Positions 9,946 through 62,853 of a stretch of DNA of 64,000 bases are shown here, piece after piece. Below the pieces are notes generated by a model, which made no database searches, was not told the DNA's origin, and was given only the letters and a program-made list of their open reading frames with translations. Numbering within the stretch: the first letter of the stretch is position 1; every line of letters begins with the position of its first letter. The DNA comes from Alphaproteobacteria bacterium (GTDB lineage: Bacteria; Pseudomonadota; Alphaproteobacteria; Rs-D84): positions 5,887 to 69,886 of the forward strand of contig JAFURB010000017.1 in NCBI GenBank assembly GCA_017472065.1. The letters run 5' to 3'. The position numbers and the translations under genes were made by a program.

Positions 9946-11526
9946 CTAGAATTTAATATTCAACCCAACACGAACCCCCAACGACTTAAAGAAGGAATCA
10001 ATTTCATCATCAATTGTATCCTTCCACCCATTGGAACGAACCTGATTAATATAAACCGCATCTGGATCTGGGGCATATTCTATGCCATCCTGAACAAAAC
10101 CATTTAACATATAGTTTTCACCATATTCCACCCCAAATTCAGCATTATACCCGGCCAACAAAGAATCATACAGCGCCTGATAATATTCTGGATTCAGATA
10201 TGTTGTCGCATCTGCACCACCAACACTGTAATAATCATATGTGATACCCAGTGTCAACGCAACTTTATCCGTCAGTGCTGTGCGCCAATTCGCCCCCAGT
10301 CCCAGGTGGAACGCACTGCCAAATCCCGCTTCGTCTTCAATTGATTTTGGATGTTGCCACTCGCTACGATATGGTTGATCGGCGGTTGCATTATACGATG
10401 GCAATCCTAATTCCACGCGGGCCGTTACTGCATTATTTTGATTAATATCATACAGCATATCAAACGCCAAATATGGCCCCGTCCATGTTACTTCATAAGA
10501 GTGACTAATATCTGATTGATGGAAATAAAATGACTCCATTGTATCCACATAGTCCCCATTTGCATTATCCAATGGGATACCAACAACATCCGCATAACTG
10601 TCACCGTTTATATCAATATATTCAAACTGTCCAAATGTATATTGAACCACGGTATCATCACCAGAACCCAAAACCTTAAAGAACGCAATTGCAGGCCAAC
10701 ACTGGGTCATACCACCATCGGTAATACACCCGTTATTTCCATCAATTGTATCAATTTTCATACCGTAATTATTAGATGTTTCCACCTTATACTTCAAATG
10801 TCGCCAACCAATCGATGGTGTAATTTTAACCTTGCCCCAGGTAAAGAAATCCTTTAATCCAATTCCTGCACGCAATCCCAACATATCACCATCTTTGCTT
10901 TCACCAACCGACAGCGCATGCCCATATTCCATATAAGAAACATCTTTATCTGTATCATCTGGCCATATGGCAACTTCGAACCCGCCATTGGTAACATCGT
11001 CGTCAATCATCGTGCCATTACCCATCTGAATACCATATTCCAATCCGGCTTCCAGTGTTAATGCGGTATTACCTGCCATAAAGTCATATCCAGCATTTAT
11101 ATCAAAAACACCCCACGACAAATTATCATAACGCAATATAGATCCTGCACTAGCCATATCAAATTGCCACATACCCGTTTTATATGACAAGCCTGTATCT
11201 ACATGAAACCCATTTGATTTATTGGCCGCGACCGGCTGTTGCGCCGACGAACGATTTTGTTGGGCCACATTACGGGCATTTTGCCCATATCGATTTGCAT
11301 ATGACGAATACCCCGTTGTGTTATAGCCTGCCGAACTATACCGTGCCTGATTATATGCCGACACACCCGATGTACTGCGTGTTGCCGTATTTGAAAACGC
11401 CGATGAATTATAACGTGTCTGGGGCGACTGATATGTACCATTATAATATGTTCCCGCCGCATTTACCGCAACCGGCATCAAGACCAGCAAAGAACATCCA
11501 CACAAAATTTTTGACCACTTTTTCAT
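9946..11526 (-). CDS. outer-membrane beta-barrel protein (526 aa) with S/Y/N/R/Q-rich N-terminal low-complexity region
   Basis: Signal peptide MKKWSKILCGCSLLVLMPVAVNA. C-terminal ...VRVGLNIKF with terminal Phe, typical of OMPs. Confidence 0.7.
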   Translation of the reverse strand: MKKWSKILCGCSLLVLMPVAVNAAGTYYNGTYQSPQTRYNSSAFSNTATRSTSGVSAYNQARYSSAGYNTTGYSSYANRYGQNARNVAQQNRSSAQQPVAANKSNGFHVDTGLSYKTGMWQFDMASAGSILRYDNLSWGVFDINAGYDFMAGNTALTLEAGLEYGIQMGNGTMIDDDVTNGGFEVAIWPDDTDKDVSYMEYGHALSVGESKDGDMLGLRAGIGLKDFFTWGKVKITPSIGWRHLKYKVETSNNYGMKIDTIDGNNGCITDGGMTQCWPAIAFFKVLGSGDDTVVQYTFGQFEYIDINGDSYADVVGIPLDNANGDYVDTMESFYFHQSDISHSYEVTWTGPYLAFDMLYDINQNNAVTARVELGLPSYNATADQPYRSEWQHPKSIEDEAGFGSAFHLGLGANWRTALTDKVALTLGITYDYYSVGGADATTYLNPEYYQALYDSLLAGYNAEFGVEYGENYMLNGFVQDGIEYAPDPDAVYINQVRSNGWKDTIDDEIDSFFKSLGVRVGLNIKF

Positions 11527-11621
11527 ATTAAACCCTTTCCCTTTAGAATTTATATCAAATAAATTATATCATAAAAAGGTTGAAAAAAAAATCTGTTATT
11601 GCAAAAATGTGACAACCTTTT

Positions 11622-11707
11622 GCGGCCATGGCGGAATTGGTAGACGCGCAGCACTAAGGATGCTGTGGACAAAATCCTTGGGGGTTCGATTCCCCCTGGC
11701 CGCACCA
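11622..11707 (+). tRNA. tRNA-Leu, anticodon AAG (A34)
   Basis: Cloverleaf GCGGCCA/TGGCCGC acceptor, long variable arm, GGTTCGATTCC T-arm, encoded CCA. Anticodon stem CAGCA/TGCTG with loop CTAAGGA, anticodon at 11656..11658. Confidence 0.85.
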
Positions 11708-11709
11708 TT

Positions 11710-11737
11710 TCATATCTCATATCTCATATCTCATATT
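11710..11737. repeat. heptanucleotide tandem repeat (TCATATC) about 4 copies
   Basis: tcatatc tcatatc tcatatc tcatatt, starting 2 nt after the tRNA-Leu 3' end and upstream of giant Cys-rich gene A. Confidence 0.8.
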
Positions 11738-11784
11738 TCGCTTGCCCCGATTTTCTGAAATTTGCTACACTATCACACATAAGG

Positions 11785-14700
11785 ATGAAGGGAATTAAGA
11801 TAATTTTTGCCGTATGCCTTGCGTTGCTTGGGATTAGTGACGCGTGGGCCACGGATTCTGATGACGCAGTACGCGCCGCTACGCGTCGTGGTGAAACAAA
11901 TACGGTTACATCTGCACGCAAAAAAACTAATACCCCGGCGGTTTCATCAAATGTAAATGCGGTCACACGCGTTACAAATGCAACCGCAAAACAGGCACAA
12001 ACAATGCGCGAACGCGCAACAACACCCCGCACTGGCAATAATGTGTTAACACGCACATCAACGCCACAAAATAATAAACAGGTATCTGCCCGCACAGCAA
12101 CCAACATATCGTCACGCGCAACGACAACCGATGGCACAAAAAAAACAACCACATCACGACACGCATCGCCTGCGCGCGCCGCGACACGCACACCAACAAC
12201 CACCATCCGAACCAGCACGGCTGCACGCAACGCATCGCGTCGCACATCAATCGCACGCAGTGCCACAACCGACACCGCAAATCTGCGTGATGTGGTAATG
12301 AACGCAAATCACAAAGAATGTCGCGATGTCTTTTACAATTGTATGGATGAATTCTGCGCGAACAAAGACAGTCAACTAAAACGTTGTGCATGTTCGTCAC
12401 GCCTGCATGAATTTGACGGCATAAAAAAACAATTGGCCGTCGTCGAAGATAAAATGTTGGATTTTTCCCAACGTCTTTTAACGGTCAGTATGGATGCCGA
12501 AGATGCGGCCGCCCTGAACATCGCCACCGAAGGGGAACTGGCATTTAACCAAAAAGATACATCCGAATCAAAAAAATTATTGGATGAAATTGCAAAGAAA
12601 TTAAACACTAAATTTGATGACGATTCATTTGACAGAAACCTGACCGCAATATCATTGTCCTTGAACGAAGATGCGGCATTTGACAATGTTGATTCTTTGA
12701 TGGGGGCATCTACGACATTAAAGACCGGCACTGAATTACATGCGGCGGCCCTGCCGGTGTGTCGCGAAATGGCGGCCGAGGTTTGCACCCCCGACCAACT
12801 GGCCATTGCCGAAAGCGGTTATAAAATGATGATTGAACAAGACTGTAATACGGTAAAAAAATCGTATCAATCCCAAACAGATGCCGCCCGCACCAAGGTT
12901 ATGGAAAGCAGCGCGTTACTGGACATGTCGCGCCTAAACACATACCAAGATAGAAATTCAGACGACATATTAACATGCAAACGCAAAATGCTGGATATGT
13001 TAAGTGACACATCGGTCTGTGGTAAAAACCTGGCAAAGTGCTTGGATACAACGGGGCAATATATCAACCCATCAACCGGCGATGCGTTTTTAACCACCAA
13101 TTTGGCAAATCTAAGTACACTTATTAAACGACCAGATGCAAATAACACATGGACCAGCATGCCTGGCAACGAACGTTTTGTGCAACACTTAAATTCAAAA
13201 AAGACATATCTGGAACCTGCGATGGAACATTGCCAAGACATTGCAGATTCTGTGTGGGACGATTTTATCGAAGATGCGTTGGCACAAATAAAACTGGCCC
13301 AGGATGCCAAACTAGAAGAAGTTCGCCAATCATGCACCACACTTACCACACAATGTTTATCTGACACTGCTAAATCATTAACAGATTTTGATGCACGCGC
13401 CCTGTCAACATTTGGTGTTATCGCAGATATGACTGTAAACGCCATGTGTGCTGATGTAAAAACTGCATGTACTGCATTACTGGAAACAACCGGTGGCGGC
13501 ACAGATTGGGCGGGTGGCATGACAGAAATCGCCACCGACACAACATATGAGACAATAATTCAGACATGCCGCGAGGTTGGCCGTGCATGCATTGTTCAAA
13601 ATTGCCGTTCCATTTCTGGCAACTTTGGTCTGTGTGAAAACATTGAAACATCCGTTAATCGCAAGGCAATTATTCGTGGCACATCCTGCTGGGACGATGT
13701 TTTGAAATGCGTTGCCGATGCCGGCGCCGATTCGATTGAAAAAATTACAGCGCAATTGTCATCACGCAAAATCATCCCCGGTCCAGAAAACATTATCAAC
13801 GACGGCGATGAAATTATATCAACAACAACACCGCTTTATTCATTTTATAGTGAACTCTACGACATAACCATTGATGGTAAAAAATATGCTGCCCTGTCAA
13901 GCGACATCAGTGGCAACGGATACGATATTGCCAACTGCAGAATTTCTGGTGTAACCGTCACGGACGATAACGGTAATGAAACAAAATATGAACCAATGCG
14001 TTGTGTATACGACATGTGTGTTGCCAAGGGACAATGTGCCACAACCTATAATGACACATCAACCAAATGCAAAACATGTCGCATTGCCGAACGTATTTGG
14101 GGACATTGCGAAATGGATCCAATAACCCAATTACCTGGTGCAGACGAACACAATCAAATCTTGGCCCCATCTAATCGTGACGAAACAACATTATTATATT
14201 GGTTTGCACTAAATACCGGCACGGAAAATATGGCTGACTCTTGTCGCGACACATCATGCGGCCCCGGCGAAATGTTTAGCGCCACAAAAAATCAATGTAT
14301 CTCTGTCGAAGCAATCAGTAACGATGGCACCGAATGCGAATCCAGAAATCGTATCGCCGTCCCAGGTGCCCAGACAAATTGTTGCAGTGCAACATCAAAA
14401 GATTCGTGGGGCAATTGCTGTGGTGGTGTATTAAAAACACAAATCGCAGGATTCGATGCATCTATAACAGATTCGTATTTTGCCACACTGGACAAAACAC
14501 AAACAACAAACAACAACTACAAGATATGTATCCCAAGTGAGACACAAATCAATTTTGTTGTACAATTTGCCCCATCGGATACCACATATTATACGCTTGG
14601 TCGAAATATACTTGTATGTCTGGGTGATTTATCTGATGGTGGCGATACAAGTGGTGCGTTCCCATCGGGCGACACAATTGAATGTAACGGTCAATACATG

Positions 14701-14919
14701 GTTATAAACCTAGATTCTGGCATGTATTATGCCCCAACCCCATCTGCCCCGTCACCAAACATGTCATACAAAATTGATAATGGTTCGACAACATGCACCC
14801 TTGGGTATGACACATCAACCAACACATGGACATGGACACAAAGTGGTACCGGCGAAACATCATGCACGACATCAATGCCATCCGCAAATGATGGTTGGGG
14901 ACTAATGATACAATACTAG
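11785..14919 (+). CDS. giant secreted cysteine-rich protein, paralog A (1044 aa)
   Basis: Signal peptide MKGIKIIFAVCLALLGISDAWA. T/S/R/A-rich spacer. Signature CRDVFYNCMDEFCANKDSQLKRCACSS at 12319..12393. The ORF-track start 11665 lies inside the tRNA and is rejected. Confidence 0.8.
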   Translation: MKGIKIIFAVCLALLGISDAWATDSDDAVRAATRRGETNTVTSARKKTNTPAVSSNVNAVTRVTNATAKQAQTMRERATTPRTGNNVLTRTSTPQNNKQVSARTATNISSRATTTDGTKKTTTSRHASPARAATRTPTTTIRTSTAARNASRRTSIARSATTDTANLRDVVMNANHKECRDVFYNCMDEFCANKDSQLKRCACSSRLHEFDGIKKQLAVVEDKMLDFSQRLLTVSMDAEDAAALNIATEGELAFNQKDTSESKKLLDEIAKKLNTKFDDDSFDRNLTAISLSLNEDAAFDNVDSLMGASTTLKTGTELHAAALPVCREMAAEVCTPDQLAIAESGYKMMIEQDCNTVKKSYQSQTDAARTKVMESSALLDMSRLNTYQDRNSDDILTCKRKMLDMLSDTSVCGKNLAKCLDTTGQYINPSTGDAFLTTNLANLSTLIKRPDANNTWTSMPGNERFVQHLNSKKTYLEPAMEHCQDIADSVWDDFIEDALAQIKLAQDAKLEEVRQSCTTLTTQCLSDTAKSLTDFDARALSTFGVIADMTVNAMCADVKTACTALLETTGGGTDWAGGMTEIATDTTYETIIQTCREVGRACIVQNCRSISGNFGLCENIETSVNRKAIIRGTSCWDDVLKCVADAGADSIEKITAQLSSRKIIPGPENIINDGDEIISTTTPLYSFYSELYDITIDGKKYAALSSDISGNGYDIANCRISGVTVTDDNGNETKYEPMRCVYDMCVAKGQCATTYNDTSTKCKTCRIAERIWGHCEMDPITQLPGADEHNQILAPSNRDETTLLYWFALNTGTENMADSCRDTSCGPGEMFSATKNQCISVEAISNDGTECESRNRIAVPGAQTNCCSATSKDSWGNCCGGVLKTQIAGFDASITDSYFATLDKTQTTNNNYKICIPSETQINFVVQFAPSDTTYYTLGRNILVCLGDLSDGGDTSGAFPSGDTIECNGQYMVINLDSGMYYAPTPSAPSPNMSYKIDNGSTTCTLGYDTSTNTWTWTQSGTGETSCTTSMPSANDGWGLMIQY

Positions 14920-14927
14920 GACACAAA

Positions 14928-16298
14928 ATGAAGCATTTAACATACGCAACTATTTTTGTACTGATGACAATGCAACCGTTGATGGCAGCAACCAATACAT
15001 CTTGCGAAAGCATTAACACAGAACACAACAGTTGTGCAAGTATCGCAGGCTGTATGGCCGACCAAGAAAATCCTGGCACATGTATGGCATGTCCAGCTGG
15101 TAAATACGGTGCCGGGTGTACAAAATCATGCACCGCACATTACACATATAATTCTGGATGCGACGGGTGTGAATGGGGATACACAGGCGAAGGTTTTATA
15201 GATAACACTTGCTCTTGGTATGCGAATTGTCCTGCTGGATACTATTGGTCTGATGATTCTGGATGCCAGCCATGCGCTTCTGATGAATTTACACCAGACA
15301 AAACCGAAGTTGAATATTGGGGCGAAGAAATCACAAACACAGGCTACGTTTCATGCCAGAAATGCGGTGCATACTCAACAGGTATAAAACGCTACAATAC
15401 CAGCGATTCTGGTGGATGCAAATGCAACTTGGGATACCATGTACCAAATTCCAGGGAAGATGATAAAGAAACCTACACCGGTGAAGATTGTGTTCCCGCT
15501 ACATACCGAATCAGAATTTATAAAAATCATCCAGAGAATGAAAATGACGACGAATACATCACACTGTACGTGCGTTATGGAAAAAACGGCTTTGTCCAAG
15601 GCACCCCAACCGACGACAACAACCGTGATTCTTGGTTTGAATCAGCCTCTAAAACAAACGTCGTGCCAAATATTGATGATGGTACAAATTATAAATACCA
15701 AATAAATGAATACACAGACACCAAATGCGGTGTTGACGACTGTCCAGAAGACCCCACACTAATGCCTGGTGATGTTTATTCCGCACCCATCACGGACTTT
15801 ACAAGCGATACAGATTTGTATGCATGCTATAAGACAAAAACATATTCCATTATGTATCTCAGTGACCCCCAATCAACTGGCACACACCAAATTAGTCAAC
15901 TTACATATAACACACCACTACAATCAGCCATGGATATAGAAGATGTTTATGAACACGCCCCACATTTTTACGATCGGTGGGATGGAAAAATATTTTCGCA
16001 TTGGTCATGCCATGCATCAACATGTGATGACACAGAAATACACCCCGGCGATCCAATTCCAGAACCAAACGCCCCATACCCACAAACCCAATTAATCGCG
16101 GTTTTGAAAGACTGCGGTACTGGAAAGTATTGCAAAAACAATGAAGAAGATTACTGTCCCGCCGGCACAACAACCCTAATCACAACCGCGACCAGCGAAG
16201 CAGCATGCAAATTAACCAACAAAACAAAGTTCAAAGATAATACAGACCTGATTTTTAGTTTACCTATTTCAGATTCTACAACGATTTCTATAAAATAA
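14928..16298 (+). CDS. secreted cysteine-rich repeat protein (456 aa), partner of paralog A
   Basis: Starts 8 nt after the stop of A. Signal peptide MKHLTYATIFVLMTMQPLMA. Motifs CMACPAGKYGAGC, NCPAGYYW, CQKCGAYSTG, CPAGTTTLITTATSEAAC. F-x-x-W repeat resembling Listeria-Bacteroides-type repeats. Confidence 0.75.
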   Translation: MKHLTYATIFVLMTMQPLMAATNTSCESINTEHNSCASIAGCMADQENPGTCMACPAGKYGAGCTKSCTAHYTYNSGCDGCEWGYTGEGFIDNTCSWYANCPAGYYWSDDSGCQPCASDEFTPDKTEVEYWGEEITNTGYVSCQKCGAYSTGIKRYNTSDSGGCKCNLGYHVPNSREDDKETYTGEDCVPATYRIRIYKNHPENENDDEYITLYVRYGKNGFVQGTPTDDNNRDSWFESASKTNVVPNIDDGTNYKYQINEYTDTKCGVDDCPEDPTLMPGDVYSAPITDFTSDTDLYACYKTKTYSIMYLSDPQSTGTHQISQLTYNTPLQSAMDIEDVYEHAPHFYDRWDGKIFSHWSCHASTCDDTEIHPGDPIPEPNAPYPQTQLIAVLKDCGTGKYCKNNEEDYCPAGTTTLITTATSEAACKLTNKTKFKDNTDLIFSLPISDSTTISIK

Positions 16299-16325
16299 AT
16301 CCCACATTTTGTGGGATTTTTTTTC
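16299..16325. terminator. bidirectional intrinsic terminator
   Basis: atcccac-atttt-gtgggat followed by T8; lies between convergent genes. Confidence 0.75.
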
Positions 16326-16326
16326 G

Positions 16327-16848
16327 TTAAAACAATCTAATCGTTTCAATTGCGCTTTTTATTGCCTGCATCTGCAGCGGCCCAAATCGCCCCAGAACCC
16401 AATCCGCTGGATTCATCGGCAAATCAAAATCACGTGGATGACCGATACCAATTCTTATTCGTTTATAGTCACGCCCGATATTTGCATCAATTGATTTTAT
16501 ACCGTTATGACCGGCACTGCCACCACCAGTCTTTTCGCGTATATTTCCAATTGCCAAATCCATATCATCATGAATTACGATAACATTTTCAACTGGCACC
16601 TTGTAAAATGTCATCAATGCCAATACCGCAACCCCACTGTTATTCATATATGTTTGCGGTTTAACAAAAATCACACGCACCCCGTCCATATTCGTCGCAT
16701 ACACGTGTGCATTTTTTTCCTTTTTCCATGTTGCATCATCACCGGCCAAATAATCCACCGCCATAAATCCAACATTGTGACGCGTGTTCGTATATTCCGT
16801 CCCGGGATTACCCAGTCCAACGACCAAAATCGGTTTATTTTCTTGCAT
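16327..16848 (-). CDS. pth: peptidyl-tRNA hydrolase
   Basis: LVVGLGNPGTEYTNTRHNVGFM N-terminal signature; size 173 aa. Confidence 0.9.
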   Translation of the reverse strand: MQENKPILVVGLGNPGTEYTNTRHNVGFMAVDYLAGDDATWKKEKNAHVYATNMDGVRVIFVKPQTYMNNSGVAVLALMTFYKVPVENVIVIHDDMDLAIGNIREKTGGGSAGHNGIKSIDANIGRDYKRIRIGIGHPRDFDLPMNPADWVLGRFGPLQMQAIKSAIETIRLF

Positions 16849-59141: not shown

Positions 59142-59187
59142 TTAGTATTTTTTTACATATTTTGATATCATACACATTGTATAAATA

Positions 59188-62067
59188 ATGAAACGGATTT
59201 TGATTTTTATCATGACGTATATCGTCAGTGTCGGTATTGCCGACGCTGCTGTTCGTGATACCAATGCAATATCACGAAAATCAGCATCAACAAACAATTC
59301 TGTTGTATCGCGCACCAATACCACACAACGAACAAACGCCCGCACAACAACATCGCGAGCAACTGTATCTCGTCAACCCGATAAAAACACATCCCGCACA
59401 ACTACATCGCGTTCGCAATCCAACGTACGCACCGGGACCACATCACGCGCCGCGCGTGCAACAACTACATCACGCGCCGCCACCATGACACCGCGCACAT
59501 CAAATACAAAGGTTTCACGTTCTGCCACAAACATATCCCGCCCTGCCCGTGCGGCATCAATTACCGCATCACAATCACAGACATTTGGTACGGGATACAA
59601 CGCGTGTCGCGATGCATACTTTACATGCATGGACCAATTTTGTGCCACACAAAACGAATCGTACCGTCGCTGCACATGTTCATCACGACTGAACCAGATT
59701 AAATCCCGTGAAAACCTGTTATCACAGACGGCTGAACAATTACAAGATTTCAAAGACTTTAACCTTAGTGTGATTGATAAATCCGCCGCCGAGGTCAAGG
59801 CAATGATAAACGCCACATCGGGTGAATACATCGCATCATCATCCAGCGACAGATCTGAATCCGCGAAACAGTTATCCAGTATCGGTTCTATCCTGTCCCA
59901 GGCAAAATCAAAATCATTATCCACCGCCGGCACTGTGGATATTGGTGGTGACATTAAACAGATTTGGCAAACAACCGATCTTGCCAACGGGGCAGATATC
60001 GCGAACCTGACGGGTGAATCATTATACAATGCGGTCCATGCCCAGTGCAGTCAAATGGTGGCGGAAACATGTGAATCTAAATCAACCCTGAACATGGTGG
60101 TTTCTGCGTACGGTATGTATATCGAAAACGATTGCACCACCCTGTCAAACAGTTTGGATTCCAAAACCAATGCAGCCAAGGGTTCTGTGCGTGACACCGA
60201 ACGTGAAATGCACAACGCACGCCTTGACAACTATGATGCCCACAATTCAACATCTATTAATGATTGTGTTGCCCTGGTACGCGCAGACATAACGGCCAAC
60301 ACAGCATGCGGACCTGACTATGTACACTGTCTGGATGTAACCGGTCGATATCTAAATCGTGAAACGGGCGAACCAATTTACACATCTGAATTCTATCAAT
60401 TAAACGGCCAGATTTCATTATCTGGCAACATCCTTACCAACCAGACCAACCGCATGATTGTTGCCGAATTGAACCGCATGCGTAGTTTTGCAAATCTTAG
60501 TCTGGATACATGCCGCGATTTGGCCGACGATGTATGGGACGAATTCGTCCGCCAGGCCATAACTGAAATATACCAGGGCCAACAAGAACGCATCCGTACG
60601 GTCAAAAACGAATGCTTGGATGTTGTAAACGCGTGTTATGATGAAAAGAATCAGTCATTAAAAGACTTTAGCAATGTCAAAGAACAATTATTATTGGGCC
60701 AGCGCCTTGAACTATCCGAAGAACTATGTCGTGAAAAATTAGATGCCTGTTCCAATCTTTACGGTGGCGGTTCTGACGGCCTGCAAGAATTGCTGGTCGC
60801 GATGCACGAACTGACCGATTCCAAGATTGCCAAACAATGTCGCGTAACCCTGCAAGAATACGCGCGCGACATCTGTGCAGTCCCCAGCAACGACACCCTG
60901 CACGCATATCCATATTCATGCCGCGTATATGCCCCTGGCGAACAAAAGTATGCCCAAATCTACGCATGTAACCAACAGTTATGGTCAACCGAAACCGGAA
61001 ATTATTCATCCAGTTACATCCCACCCACAAATGACGGTAACGGTGGTTCTGGGTCAACACCGGGCATACCAACTGTATCTAATTATTCATGTCCAGCACT
61101 GCTTAGATACACCAGTTGTGCCGAAGGATATTACATGACACTGAACGGTGTATACAACAATGGCGAACCACAAATCGGCAATCAATGTACACCGTGTCCC
61201 GATGGATATACATGCGCCGGCGGCACCGCAGACAAGAAATCAATCGAACCAGACACACCCGAAAATCCGGACTCTGACACACCTGCCACAGACCTGGACA
61301 AATACGGACACGACTGCGGCGACTATGCGGGCAGTTTGTACCAACGCCTTGTTCGCTATGCAATCCAAACATGTATTCGCCCATCTGATGCGAACAGTTC
61401 GGATTACTCTTTATCCATTGATGTTTTACAAGATGTAAATGCCGTTATGGATTCAATCCGTGTTGACATGGGCAAATCATTGGCATACGAATGTGAACGT
61501 CTGGGTGGCACATGGGTTGACGCAATGTGGATTGATAACATCGACAAAGGTGAATGCAATGATCAAGTATGCATCCCAGATATAAAAGGTGCAGATAATA
61601 TCCACGACAAGACAGGCGACACACTGTACAAAAAATTCTATGATGAAACAGGCGCAAATACAAAATGGGGATATTGCAAACCAGACAATGGCACCAGCAA
61701 TGGCACTGGTTCCAACGGCGGCGATTCTGGCGGCAACAGTGGTGGCAGTTCTTTGGCCTGTACAGAAGGCGAAACATATACAATTACACTGGACAACACA
61801 ACAAACAGCGATTGTTGCCCAGAATCAGGCATATCAACCACCTCCCAAGAAGTTAGCGTTGTATGTGGCGAATTTCCAAAACTGTCGGTGATACGCGCAA
61901 CATGCACAACAAACCCCAATTGCGTATTAAGTTATTATTCAGATAACAAAACCGACCCATCTGACCCGGCCGCCATATACTTTAGCAGTAACGGAGAATC
62001 TCCTTCAATATACGGAAATGCCGCACTTAAAACAATCTATTCATATTGGGGTGAAATAGAAGATTAA
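59188..62067 (+). CDS. giant secreted cysteine-rich protein, paralog D (959 aa)
   Basis: Signal peptide MKRILIFIMTYIVSVGIADA. TTTSR-type repeats. Signature CRDAYFTCMDQFCATQNESYRRCTCSS (59605..59679). Collinear with paralog A. Confidence 0.8.
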   Translation: MKRILIFIMTYIVSVGIADAAVRDTNAISRKSASTNNSVVSRTNTTQRTNARTTTSRATVSRQPDKNTSRTTTSRSQSNVRTGTTSRAARATTTSRAATMTPRTSNTKVSRSATNISRPARAASITASQSQTFGTGYNACRDAYFTCMDQFCATQNESYRRCTCSSRLNQIKSRENLLSQTAEQLQDFKDFNLSVIDKSAAEVKAMINATSGEYIASSSSDRSESAKQLSSIGSILSQAKSKSLSTAGTVDIGGDIKQIWQTTDLANGADIANLTGESLYNAVHAQCSQMVAETCESKSTLNMVVSAYGMYIENDCTTLSNSLDSKTNAAKGSVRDTEREMHNARLDNYDAHNSTSINDCVALVRADITANTACGPDYVHCLDVTGRYLNRETGEPIYTSEFYQLNGQISLSGNILTNQTNRMIVAELNRMRSFANLSLDTCRDLADDVWDEFVRQAITEIYQGQQERIRTVKNECLDVVNACYDEKNQSLKDFSNVKEQLLLGQRLELSEELCREKLDACSNLYGGGSDGLQELLVAMHELTDSKIAKQCRVTLQEYARDICAVPSNDTLHAYPYSCRVYAPGEQKYAQIYACNQQLWSTETGNYSSSYIPPTNDGNGGSGSTPGIPTVSNYSCPALLRYTSCAEGYYMTLNGVYNNGEPQIGNQCTPCPDGYTCAGGTADKKSIEPDTPENPDSDTPATDLDKYGHDCGDYAGSLYQRLVRYAIQTCIRPSDANSSDYSLSIDVLQDVNAVMDSIRVDMGKSLAYECERLGGTWVDAMWIDNIDKGECNDQVCIPDIKGADNIHDKTGDTLYKKFYDETGANTKWGYCKPDNGTSNGTGSNGGDSGGNSGGSSLACTEGETYTITLDNTTNSDCCPESGISTTSQEVSVVCGEFPKLSVIRATCTTNPNCVLSYYSDNKTDPSDPAAIYFSSNGESPSIYGNAALKTIYSYWGEIED

Positions 62068-62123
62068 CACAATTGCGTAACAACAAAAAAAATGATAAAA
62101 TAAAACATACCATGGAAAAAAAT

Positions 62124-62825
62124 ATGAAACAGAAATTTATACTATCATTGATGTTAATACCATTTGCAACCGCATCACATGCGGCAATAAACTGGTGGGA
62201 ACAGGCAACCGTTTGTCGCCTGGATCCATCCAAATGTTACAGCAATATGGGCATCGGATATGCAATTGACGAATGGGACAGTGATGCGGACTGTCGCGGG
62301 AAAAAGATTATTTGTGGCGCGGCATTAAAACCACAATCAGACAACGATTGGTCTATGTCAAAATACGACATAAAAAGTCGCAATGGCATCAATCCAGACT
62401 TTGACATCGATGTATTAAATGGCACATGTTTTGGTGCGCGCAAAACCGTATCCAATGGTTCCCAGGCATATTATAACAATGTTCTGGTCAATGTGTTCTG
62501 TCCTGGGGTTCTGGAAAACTTTTACGATTACGACGAAATTGAAAATGTTGAAACAGGTTCTATCTTGACCAAATCCGAACAACCACGTTGTGATAAATTG
62601 GCAACATATGGATATGTAAATGTCAAGAACGGTCGCTGCTATGGCAAACAATATTCTGAATCAGAATACTACATTGATTGTTCGCGCGGCGACAATGATG
62701 TACGTTTGGTTATCTTAAACGGTGCCGAATACACAGATCACAATGACAACAGCCCACGCACCCCCAACGATGCGGATGCTATATTTGACGAAATGCTTAA
62801 AATTGCTGCTGATTTACGAAAATAA
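62124..62825 (+). CDS. secreted cysteine-containing protein (233 aa), partner of paralog D
   Basis: Signal peptide MKQKFILSLMLIPFATASHA. Starts about 56 nt after the stop of D. ATG 62112 is an alternative start. Confidence 0.65.
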   Translation: MKQKFILSLMLIPFATASHAAINWWEQATVCRLDPSKCYSNMGIGYAIDEWDSDADCRGKKIICGAALKPQSDNDWSMSKYDIKSRNGINPDFDIDVLNGTCFGARKTVSNGSQAYYNNVLVNVFCPGVLENFYDYDEIENVETGSILTKSEQPRCDKLATYGYVNVKNGRCYGKQYSESEYYIDCSRGDNDVRLVILNGAEYTDHNDNSPRTPNDADAIFDEMLKIAADLRK

Positions 62826-62827
62826 AA

Positions 62828-62853
62828 CACCCGCCACCTGGCGGGACTTTTTA
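62828..62853 (+). terminator. intrinsic terminator
   Basis: cccgcc-acct-ggcggg followed by acTTTTT. Confidence 0.65.

Follow-up and report, generated by a model that had tools for sequence, protein, structure and literature searches.

Background

In chlamydiae, OmcB (~60 kDa) and OmcA (~9 kDa) are encoded by tandem genes, and the two proteins are disulfide cross-linked in the outer membrane complex. In the adhesin operons of mycoplasmas (P1 with P40/P90 in M. pneumoniae, P140/P110 in M. genitalium) the large adhesin and its operon partner stabilise each other, and the two-component S-layer of Sulfolobus combines a large lattice protein, SlaA, with a smaller stalk protein, SlaB, encoded in one operon. 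Variable surface-antigen loci under diversifying or balancing selection are a further point of comparison; in antigen genes of this kind, for example, recombination can swap the middle part while the two ends stay conserved. Here we analyse a stretch of 64,000 nucleotides (the window, G000:C10:5887-69886) from an alphaproteobacterium of the order Rs-D84, in which two large exported cysteine-rich proteins, the giants A and D, are each followed on the same strand by a gene for a smaller exported cysteine-containing protein, A' and D', respectively. A third pair, E and E', lies on another contig of the same assembly (G000; 834 kb in 17 contigs) and is included in the comparison.

The pattern of a giant with a small partner is real, yet it turns out to be two different things. 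The D-D' and E-E' pairs appear to be old, paralog-specific two-gene modules in which each giant would have its own exported, beta-rich and disulfide-rich protein, and A-A' seems to be a variable slot, not a fixed partnership. The reading that we lean somewhat towards assigns D' and E' the role of dedicated accessory subunits in envelope or adhesin complexes stabilised by disulfides, and takes A' for a hypervariable, co-transcribed surface protein. That the genes form functionally linked pairs is more probable in our view than this statement as a whole, and that the proteins form a physical complex is less probable.

The pairs resemble OmcB/OmcA in that a host-associated bacterium has, next to each other on one strand, the genes for a large and a small exported cysteine-rich protein, and in that the envelope is presumed to be disulfide-stabilised. 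Another likeness to chlamydiae is the porin gene next to A, which matches the Pfam family 'Protochlamydia outer membrane protein'. However, there is no sequence relationship (A, A', D, D' and E' have no Pfam match) and the proteins do not belong to the chlamydial families. The small gene lies downstream here and not upstream as with OmcA, the partners measure 233-456 amino acids (aa) and are not lipoproteins, and there are several paralogous giants, each with a different, unrelated partner. With the mycoplasma adhesins the locus shares a reduced genome, a large surface protein with a co-encoded accessory and a partly variable neighbourhood, but homology is lacking, the proteins are rich in cysteines and belong to a diderm envelope, and complex formation is something that we only infer. 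The likeness to SlaA/SlaB lies in a conserved pair made up of a large and, after it, a smaller exported protein; SlaB is, however, archaeal and membrane-anchored, whereas no membrane anchor was seen in D' or E', and homology is again lacking.

Candidatus Enterousia, an uncultured and widespread lineage of gut bacteria in the order Rs-D84, has genomes of ~0.9 Mb, from which amino acid, nucleotide and fatty acid biosynthesis are absent (PMC12306168). How these bacteria attach to or live off others is the background question for their orphan exported cysteine-rich proteins, a class that goes unmentioned in the same paper (PMC12306168). In G000, ~50 of the 790 crude open reading frames (ORFs), or ~6% of the genes, are of this type, and none of them has a known family. 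Two giants with apparently dedicated partners across ~100 species, and a third coupled to a hypervariable protein, would turn this undifferentiated list of orphan genes into three concrete modules, namely two candidate hetero-complexes, for which a contact module and free cysteines are predicted, and one candidate variable surface antigen. Conserved partner versus variable slot is moreover a clean internal contrast, useful for the study of envelope evolution in reduced genomes. ORFs were called mechanically, and the sample of the genus Enterousia comprised 121 genomes, with one genome per species.

Conservation of the D-D' and E-E' pairs

Giant D (59188..62067, forward strand; exported, 959 aa, 37 cysteines) has orthologs in all 121 genomes of the genus, and those in the fetched loci align with it at 40-69% identity over most of its length, as far as residue ~830 of 959. 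The last base of the D stop codon is 62067, and after a gap of 56 nucleotides (nt) the ATG of D' follows at 62124 (D', 62124..62825, forward strand). D' is exported, with the signal peptide MKQKFILSLMLIPFATASHA, is 233 aa long and has nine invariant cysteines in the mature protein. It represents a single-copy orphan family that was found, aligned over its full length and with 37-67% identity, in 87 of the 121 genomes. Conspecific variants are 96.6-99.1% identical. A D ortholog is located directly 5' of D' on the same strand in 29 of 29 loci fetched from other species, and by coordinates the two genes are adjacent in 84 of 86 genomes, the two exceptions being a contig edge and a contig split. 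The downstream neighbours of D', by contrast, sort into 16 or more unrelated clusters in the loci that were examined, which indicates that the pair has been held together amid rearranged surroundings.

The association extends beyond the genus, as a profile search detected D' in 8 of the 22 genera of the order. Directly 5' of eight D' loci from other genera stands a D ortholog in six cases, a different giant-family member in one and no giant in one. In another genus of the family (locus L186 of genome G193), two tandem giant-family genes similar to paralogs on contig C17 of G000 are followed by a D'-like gene; partners of the D' type are therefore not limited to the D branch.

The same arrangement is found around the closest paralog of D in the whole genome, which is giant E on contig C12 (G000:C12:113227-115659, reverse strand; 36% identity, E-value 2e-105) and not A; an earlier note on this DNA had called D the paralog most similar to A. 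E' (G000:C12:112024-113214, reverse strand) encodes an exported protein of 396 aa with 22 cysteines and begins 12 nt after E. Homologs of E' are present in 80 of the 121 genomes, and an E ortholog lies directly 5' of E' in 28 of 29 loci; a single locus (in G015) has E' without a giant upstream. Nearly all gaps between E and E' fall between -25 and +22 nt across 28 species, overlaps of the type TAATG included, and a terminator usually follows E'. E' is thereby close enough to E for translational coupling, judging from the spacing of the two reading frames. As a control we considered F, a close paralog on contig C9 that has no partner in G000. No same-strand exported cysteine-rich gene was found 3' of F in the 29 other species examined, and in most of these F is followed by a convergent gene beginning ...FIIAGEVSGDVLG, which is taken to be lpxB.

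Adjacency that is kept while the surroundings change is thus observed for D/D' and E/E', and not for A/A'. The earlier note had described the 8-nt A/A' pair and the 56-nt D/D' pair, each with an exported cysteine-bearing second gene and one terminator, and its coordinates proved exact. Its proposal that the giants work with a small accessory or co-displayed protein, for which it suggested a survey of synteny in related genomes, is supported by gene order for D/D' in the genus and in other genera as well as for E/E', all of them amid scrambled flanks. A/A' is not a fixed partnership, as the position behind A is empty in 9 of 30 species and A' is hypervariable between strains.

It could be argued that these pairings are historical accidents without functional meaning, produced by gene-order inertia together with the clustering of cysteine-rich genes. 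Exported cysteine-rich genes amount to the above ~6% of genes and are indeed clustered, with ten on the window's contig, and the backbone A-pth-omp183-polA is also conserved without an obvious functional link. There are nine giant-family genes in G000 (two of them, C and B, form a tandem pair), and three of the nine have a same-strand exported cysteine-rich gene directly 3'. By our own arithmetic the binomial probability of this is ~0.008 at a background rate of 5%, but the value is soft because such genes cluster, and the comparative data count for more. These data make inertia as the sole explanation very unlikely: the far flank of D' is not conserved, and D stands next to clpX in species without D' (in 20 D'-less genomes, loci L074-L093, it mostly adjoins a convergent clpX-clpP-pgk directly). 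In addition, the D-D' pair holds in other genera, and the E-E' gaps are too short for anything except coupled expression.

Transcription of the paired genes

No terminator was found between the genes of the D/D' or the E/E' pair. After the start of D, the sole terminator-like site on the forward strand is at 62830-62845, in the intrinsic terminator that ends the D-D' unit (62830..62853, forward strand), and terminator-like hairpins were recognised by eye 3' of D' in most orthologous loci. Both genes of D-D' and of E-E' would consequently be on one transcript, because nothing between them is expected to end transcription. Two genes on one strand with a short gap, without a terminator in between and with one at the end have the layout of an operon, and E' would in addition be translationally coupled to E. 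The A/A' and E/E' gaps leave no space for an internal promoter.

The D-D' spacer carries a promoter in front of D' (62073..62101, forward strand), consisting of TTGCGT, 17 nt and a TG-extended TAAAAT (TGATAAAAT). The layout TTGCxx-17-TGnTAnAAT recurs in the D-D' spacers (43-88 nt) of about 26 of 30 species, and a promoter score of at least 10 is reached by 43% of the D-D' spacers versus 3% of shuffles. In two species the gap is only 9 and 20 nt long, respectively, and has no promoter. Since there is no terminator after D, D' is expected both on the transcript of D and on a transcript of its own, the latter probably driven by the extended -10 promoter. The conserved promoter also means that D' is not simply the second cistron of an operon, in which a single promoter would stand ahead of the first gene only. 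The earlier note had expected a co-expressed partner and had named independent promoters as a possible refutation; the uninterrupted D/D' and E/E' intervals agree with the expectation, and the promoter of D' is of the kind that was to speak against it. As for D itself, the best sigma-70-like match on its 5' side (TTGATA-16-AATAAT, 59162-59189) ends on D's own ATG, so that D may in fact start at another codon than annotated or use another promoter.

The partner proteins and their cysteines

In profile-profile comparisons of D', E' and A' only the signal peptides align and there is no homology otherwise, in agreement with the earlier note, which had found A' and D' not obviously homologous. Neither Pfam-A nor NCBIfam gave a match above threshold for A, A', B, C, D or D'. 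The relatives of D' number 356 in a set of 5.8 billion proteins; all of them are unnamed or 'hypothetical protein' entries from metagenome-assembled genomes of Alphaproteobacteria, and none has a Pfam domain. A set of 1.84 billion proteins contained 74 representatives; two long marginal matches in this set were dismissed as low-complexity or unrelated. When the A' family was compared with D and with A, the only match was a weak, non-significant one between residues 639-684 of D and the CPAGYYC..CPAG module.

The model of D' (predicted local distance difference test score, pLDDT, 67.5) has a beta-rich core with values above 85 at residues 40-150, and 12 of its 13 strands lie in residues 46-185. 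Its C-terminal helix is predicted with little confidence, most of residues 214-232 having a pLDDT below 50. The model of E', which as a whole is confident (pLDDT 82.3, predicted template modelling score 0.70), is likewise beta-rich, and multi-domain. Two-partner secretion of the TpsA/TpsB type was considered and discarded, as no Omp85/POTRA or TPS domains occur in the six scanned proteins and as the models show D' and E' to be soluble and rich in beta structure. Gene fission was likewise discarded as the origin of the partners: a separate signal peptide is present in each ortholog of D' and E', and fused ORFs were not observed.

Instead of being structural co-subunits, the small proteins may be assembly, export or anchoring factors of a chaperone-like or tethering kind, a role that we regard as unlikely. 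It would agree with the one-sided dependence of the pair, as D' almost never occurs without an upstream giant and D exists without D'. Its own promoter could supply D' in excess, the low-confidence C-terminal helix would not be out of place in such a factor, and in 13 of 30 species lipoprotein genes separate A from the A'-type gene. Yet no lipobox, thioredoxin-like domain or other recognisable chaperone domain was detected in D' or E', nor does either have a Pfam match, and a protein as large, multi-domain and disulfide-rich as E' would be unusual for a chaperone. We prefer the reading of dedicated subunits, in which each small protein and its cognate giant would come together in the oxidising periplasm or at the cell surface.

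The cysteine counts offer a possible way in which D and D' might be joined. Mature D' has nine cysteines in 21 of 21 species (in G113, one cysteine placed there by the script was assigned to the signal peptide), and the count in D is odd (29-37) in 19 of the 21 D'-bearing species. E' has an even number of 22 in 26 of 30 species. Across 41 aligned D orthologs, 24 cysteine columns are universal, and a five-cysteine module (61090..61215, forward strand; C635, C644, C667, C670 and C676 in CP..C..GYY..C..CP.GY.C) brings the total to an odd number (24 + 5). The module is present in all D'-bearing species and in one deep D'-less clade, and is absent from a second D'-less group, which has 24-26 cysteines. 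We consider it a candidate contact or disulfide site for D'. A free cysteine of the module and a free, ninth cysteine of D' could possibly form an intermolecular bond, which we put forward as a lead and not as a result.

Several observations weigh against the view that D' and E' are dedicated subunits. Signal peptides and cleavage sites were assigned by eye and with a crude hydrophobicity script, with no dedicated predictor. The best Foldseek match of the D' model in the PDB has an E-value of 1.3, among scattered matches of the beta-trefoil type, and the best match of the E' model among solved structures is the EGF-domain protein Pfs25 with an E-value of 0.23; neither is significant, so that function is not readable from the fold. 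D keeps an odd number of cysteines in 11 of 12 species of the deep D'-less clade, and as both the odd count and the module are kept there without D', the idea of an intermolecular disulfide is weakly supported at best. Furthermore, D occurs without D' in 34 of the 121 genomes, expression of D' can be uncoupled from D by means of its own promoter, to judge from the motif, and in small, largely syntenic genomes part of the pair conservation could be inertia.

The promoter and the genomes with D alone would also suit a different explanation, in which the small proteins are independent surface proteins that share a transcription unit or neighbourhood with the giants and are co-regulated with them, but do not bind to them. 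The nine species in which A functions without A' can be cited in its favour, and so can the lack of relationship among the three partners. We think of such co-regulation as possible, yet doubtful. It needs no strict adjacency, whereas D' stays beside D almost throughout while the other neighbour changes at least 16 times. E' overlaps or abuts the stop codon of E, and each partner family is tied to one paralog and never found beside F.

The variable slot downstream of A

Giant A (11785..14919, forward strand) is an exported protein of 1044 aa with 42 cysteines in the mature part; its ATG is at 11785, its signal peptide is MKGIKIIFAVCLALLGISDAWA, and single-copy orthologs occur in 116 of the 121 genomes. 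A' (14928..16298, forward strand; exported, 456 aa, 27 cysteines) has its ATG at 14928 and the signal peptide MKHLTYATIFVLMTMQPLMA. The two genes are separated by 8 nt. In the junction (14917..14930) an AGGA Shine-Dalgarno sequence overlaps the TAG stop codon of A and is followed by a 6-nt spacer and the ATG of A' (tAGGAcacaaaATG), an arrangement that is typical of translational coupling. A' has no upstream region of its own. From the start of A to beyond A', the sole terminator-like site on the forward strand is the hairpin at 16297-16319, which with its T-run forms a bidirectional intrinsic terminator (16297..16322) ending both the A-A' unit and the convergent pth (16327..16848, reverse strand). 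In the source species A' would accordingly ride on the transcript of A.

Across 30 species the backbone A-[slot]-pth(-)-omp183-polA is conserved, with pth as the right border of the slot, and the content of the slot varies. The species in which it is empty include the nearest relatives of G000. In seven species a cysteine-rich exported gene directly follows A, in 13 the slot holds one to three lipoprotein genes and then a cysteine-rich gene, and in one a different gene precedes the cysteine-rich gene, so that in 14 of the 30 species other genes stand between A and the A'-type gene. In 20 of the other 29 species the slot contains positional relatives of A'. In a tree built from the A orthologs of the 30 species, G000 falls into a clade with support 100/99 whose five other members all have an empty slot. 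The state of the slot has changed at least 11 times on this tree, and two events are needed in G000 whether A' was retained or regained. The slot lipoproteins form a family of 134-173 aa (MKxxKxLPYxLKxxLPILG..AG..C; e.g. L138:3692-5629), which is found as a tandem triplicate in G014 and has no homolog in G000.

A' is a member of a multi-copy, fast-evolving family of exported cysteine-repeat proteins, lineage-specific and unnamed, that is characterised by a signal peptide, an N-terminal module C..C..GC..C..CPxGxY and a C-terminal module CPAGYYC..CPAGxTS..C..F/CxLP. Seven of the ten best genome-wide matches of A' in other species sit in the A-pth slot, and the slot proteins are hence fast-evolving positional relatives of A'. 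They share 19-29% identity with it, and an alignment of A' with 18 slot proteins (A3) shows conserved terminal cysteine modules around a variable middle, with C26, C36, C42, C52, C55, C396, G399, C410, P411, C427 and P446 invariant. A set of 5.8 billion proteins contained only three relatives of A', with 97%, 81% and 32% identity; the most distant of these is also located 3' of an A ortholog, at a gap of 37 nt.

The allele with 81% identity occurs on two independent metagenome contigs in the same context, including the 8-nt junction, and its flanks are nearly identical to those in the window (A 98.9%, pth 99.4%, omp183 98.9% and polA 98.7%). Nucleotide divergence between the strains is ~1% across A, reaches 6-23% per 100 nt in a hypervariable core of A' (14985..16069, forward strand) and is ~0% from 16070 on. 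According to the Nei-Gojobori method, synonymous divergence (dS) in the core is 0.32 and nonsynonymous divergence (dN) 0.13 (ratio 0.42), as compared with a dS of 0.04 and a dN of 0 at the 3' end of A', a dN/dS of 0.23 in A (dS 0.026, dN 0.006) and a dS of 0.046 in polA, the range over the flanks being 0.016-0.046. This roughly ten-fold synonymous excess and the sharp borders of the core indicate an old divergent allele that was brought in or maintained by recombination, not a burst of amino-acid substitutions. The core would thus be exchanged or diversified between strains, as is expected of an exposed variable surface protein.

In having a conserved signal peptide and 3' module on either side of a 1.1-kb core with ~10-fold the dS of its neighbours, A' is comparable to the variable antigen loci mentioned at the outset. 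It differs from them in that the family and the organism are undescribed, in that no silent cassettes, invertase or diversity-generating retroelement (DGR) were linked to A' in this analysis, and in that A' is presumably fed by the transcript of a conserved upstream gene in the source species. A DGR was rejected as the cause of the hypervariability. In DGR targets only a short stretch at the 3' end varies (~100-150 nt), by adenine-specific substitutions as compared with a template repeat nearby, whereas here the variation extends over ~1.1 kb (14985-16069), spares the 3' end and affects synonymous sites just as much, with a dS of 0.32 (a template repeat was not searched for).

A variable slot behind A that often contains lipoprotein genes also gives the locus a superficial similarity to polymorphic toxin systems, in which the giant would be the toxin and the small downstream gene its immunity protein. 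This we find extremely improbable. No toxin, pre-toxin or immunity domain is present in the six proteins A, A', B, C, D and D', and the partners are large, cysteine-rich and exported. D and D' are both conserved, at the identities given above, and not polymorphic, and the C-terminal half of A is 37-54% identical to its better-matched orthologs with no visible sharp demarcation.

A bolder version of our preferred reading would have D and E covalently linked by disulfides to D' and E' in an undescribed Rs-D84 surface structure, and would treat the A-pth slot as an antigenic-variation locus swapped by recombination under frequency-dependent selection by phage, host or partner cell. We offer it tentatively and think it rather improbable.

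The C-termini of the A orthologs (encoded at 14880-14919 in the window) differ between clades. In the clade with the empty slot they end in a beta-strand-like aromatic tail (...LMIQY, ...KIRWN, ...YRITY, ...WQINY) and in other clades in a cysteine-containing tail (...NICAE, ...VCNTTTP), and the proteins of the A' family mostly end in ...CFTLP...IYYHGG. These tails may be sorting or docking signals.

Upstream region of A and neighbouring genes

Directly 5' of A lies a tRNA-Leu(AAG) gene, identified with ARAGORN (11622..11707, forward strand), with a promoter-like site ahead of it at 11580-11608. As no terminator was found between the two genes, A may share a transcript with the tRNA. The interval between the tRNA gene and the start of A (11708-11784) contains a short (CATATCT)n-like repeat, catatctcatatctcatatctcatatt. 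On the other side of the tRNA, and divergent from tRNA-Leu and A, a gene at 9946-11526 on the reverse strand encodes a beta-barrel protein of 526 aa; this is the porin referred to above, and it matches PF17251, 'Protochlamydia outer membrane protein', with 39.4 bits against a cut-off of 22.4. The occurrence of a chlamydia-type porin family is unexpected in an alphaproteobacterium with a cysteine-rich envelope proteome.

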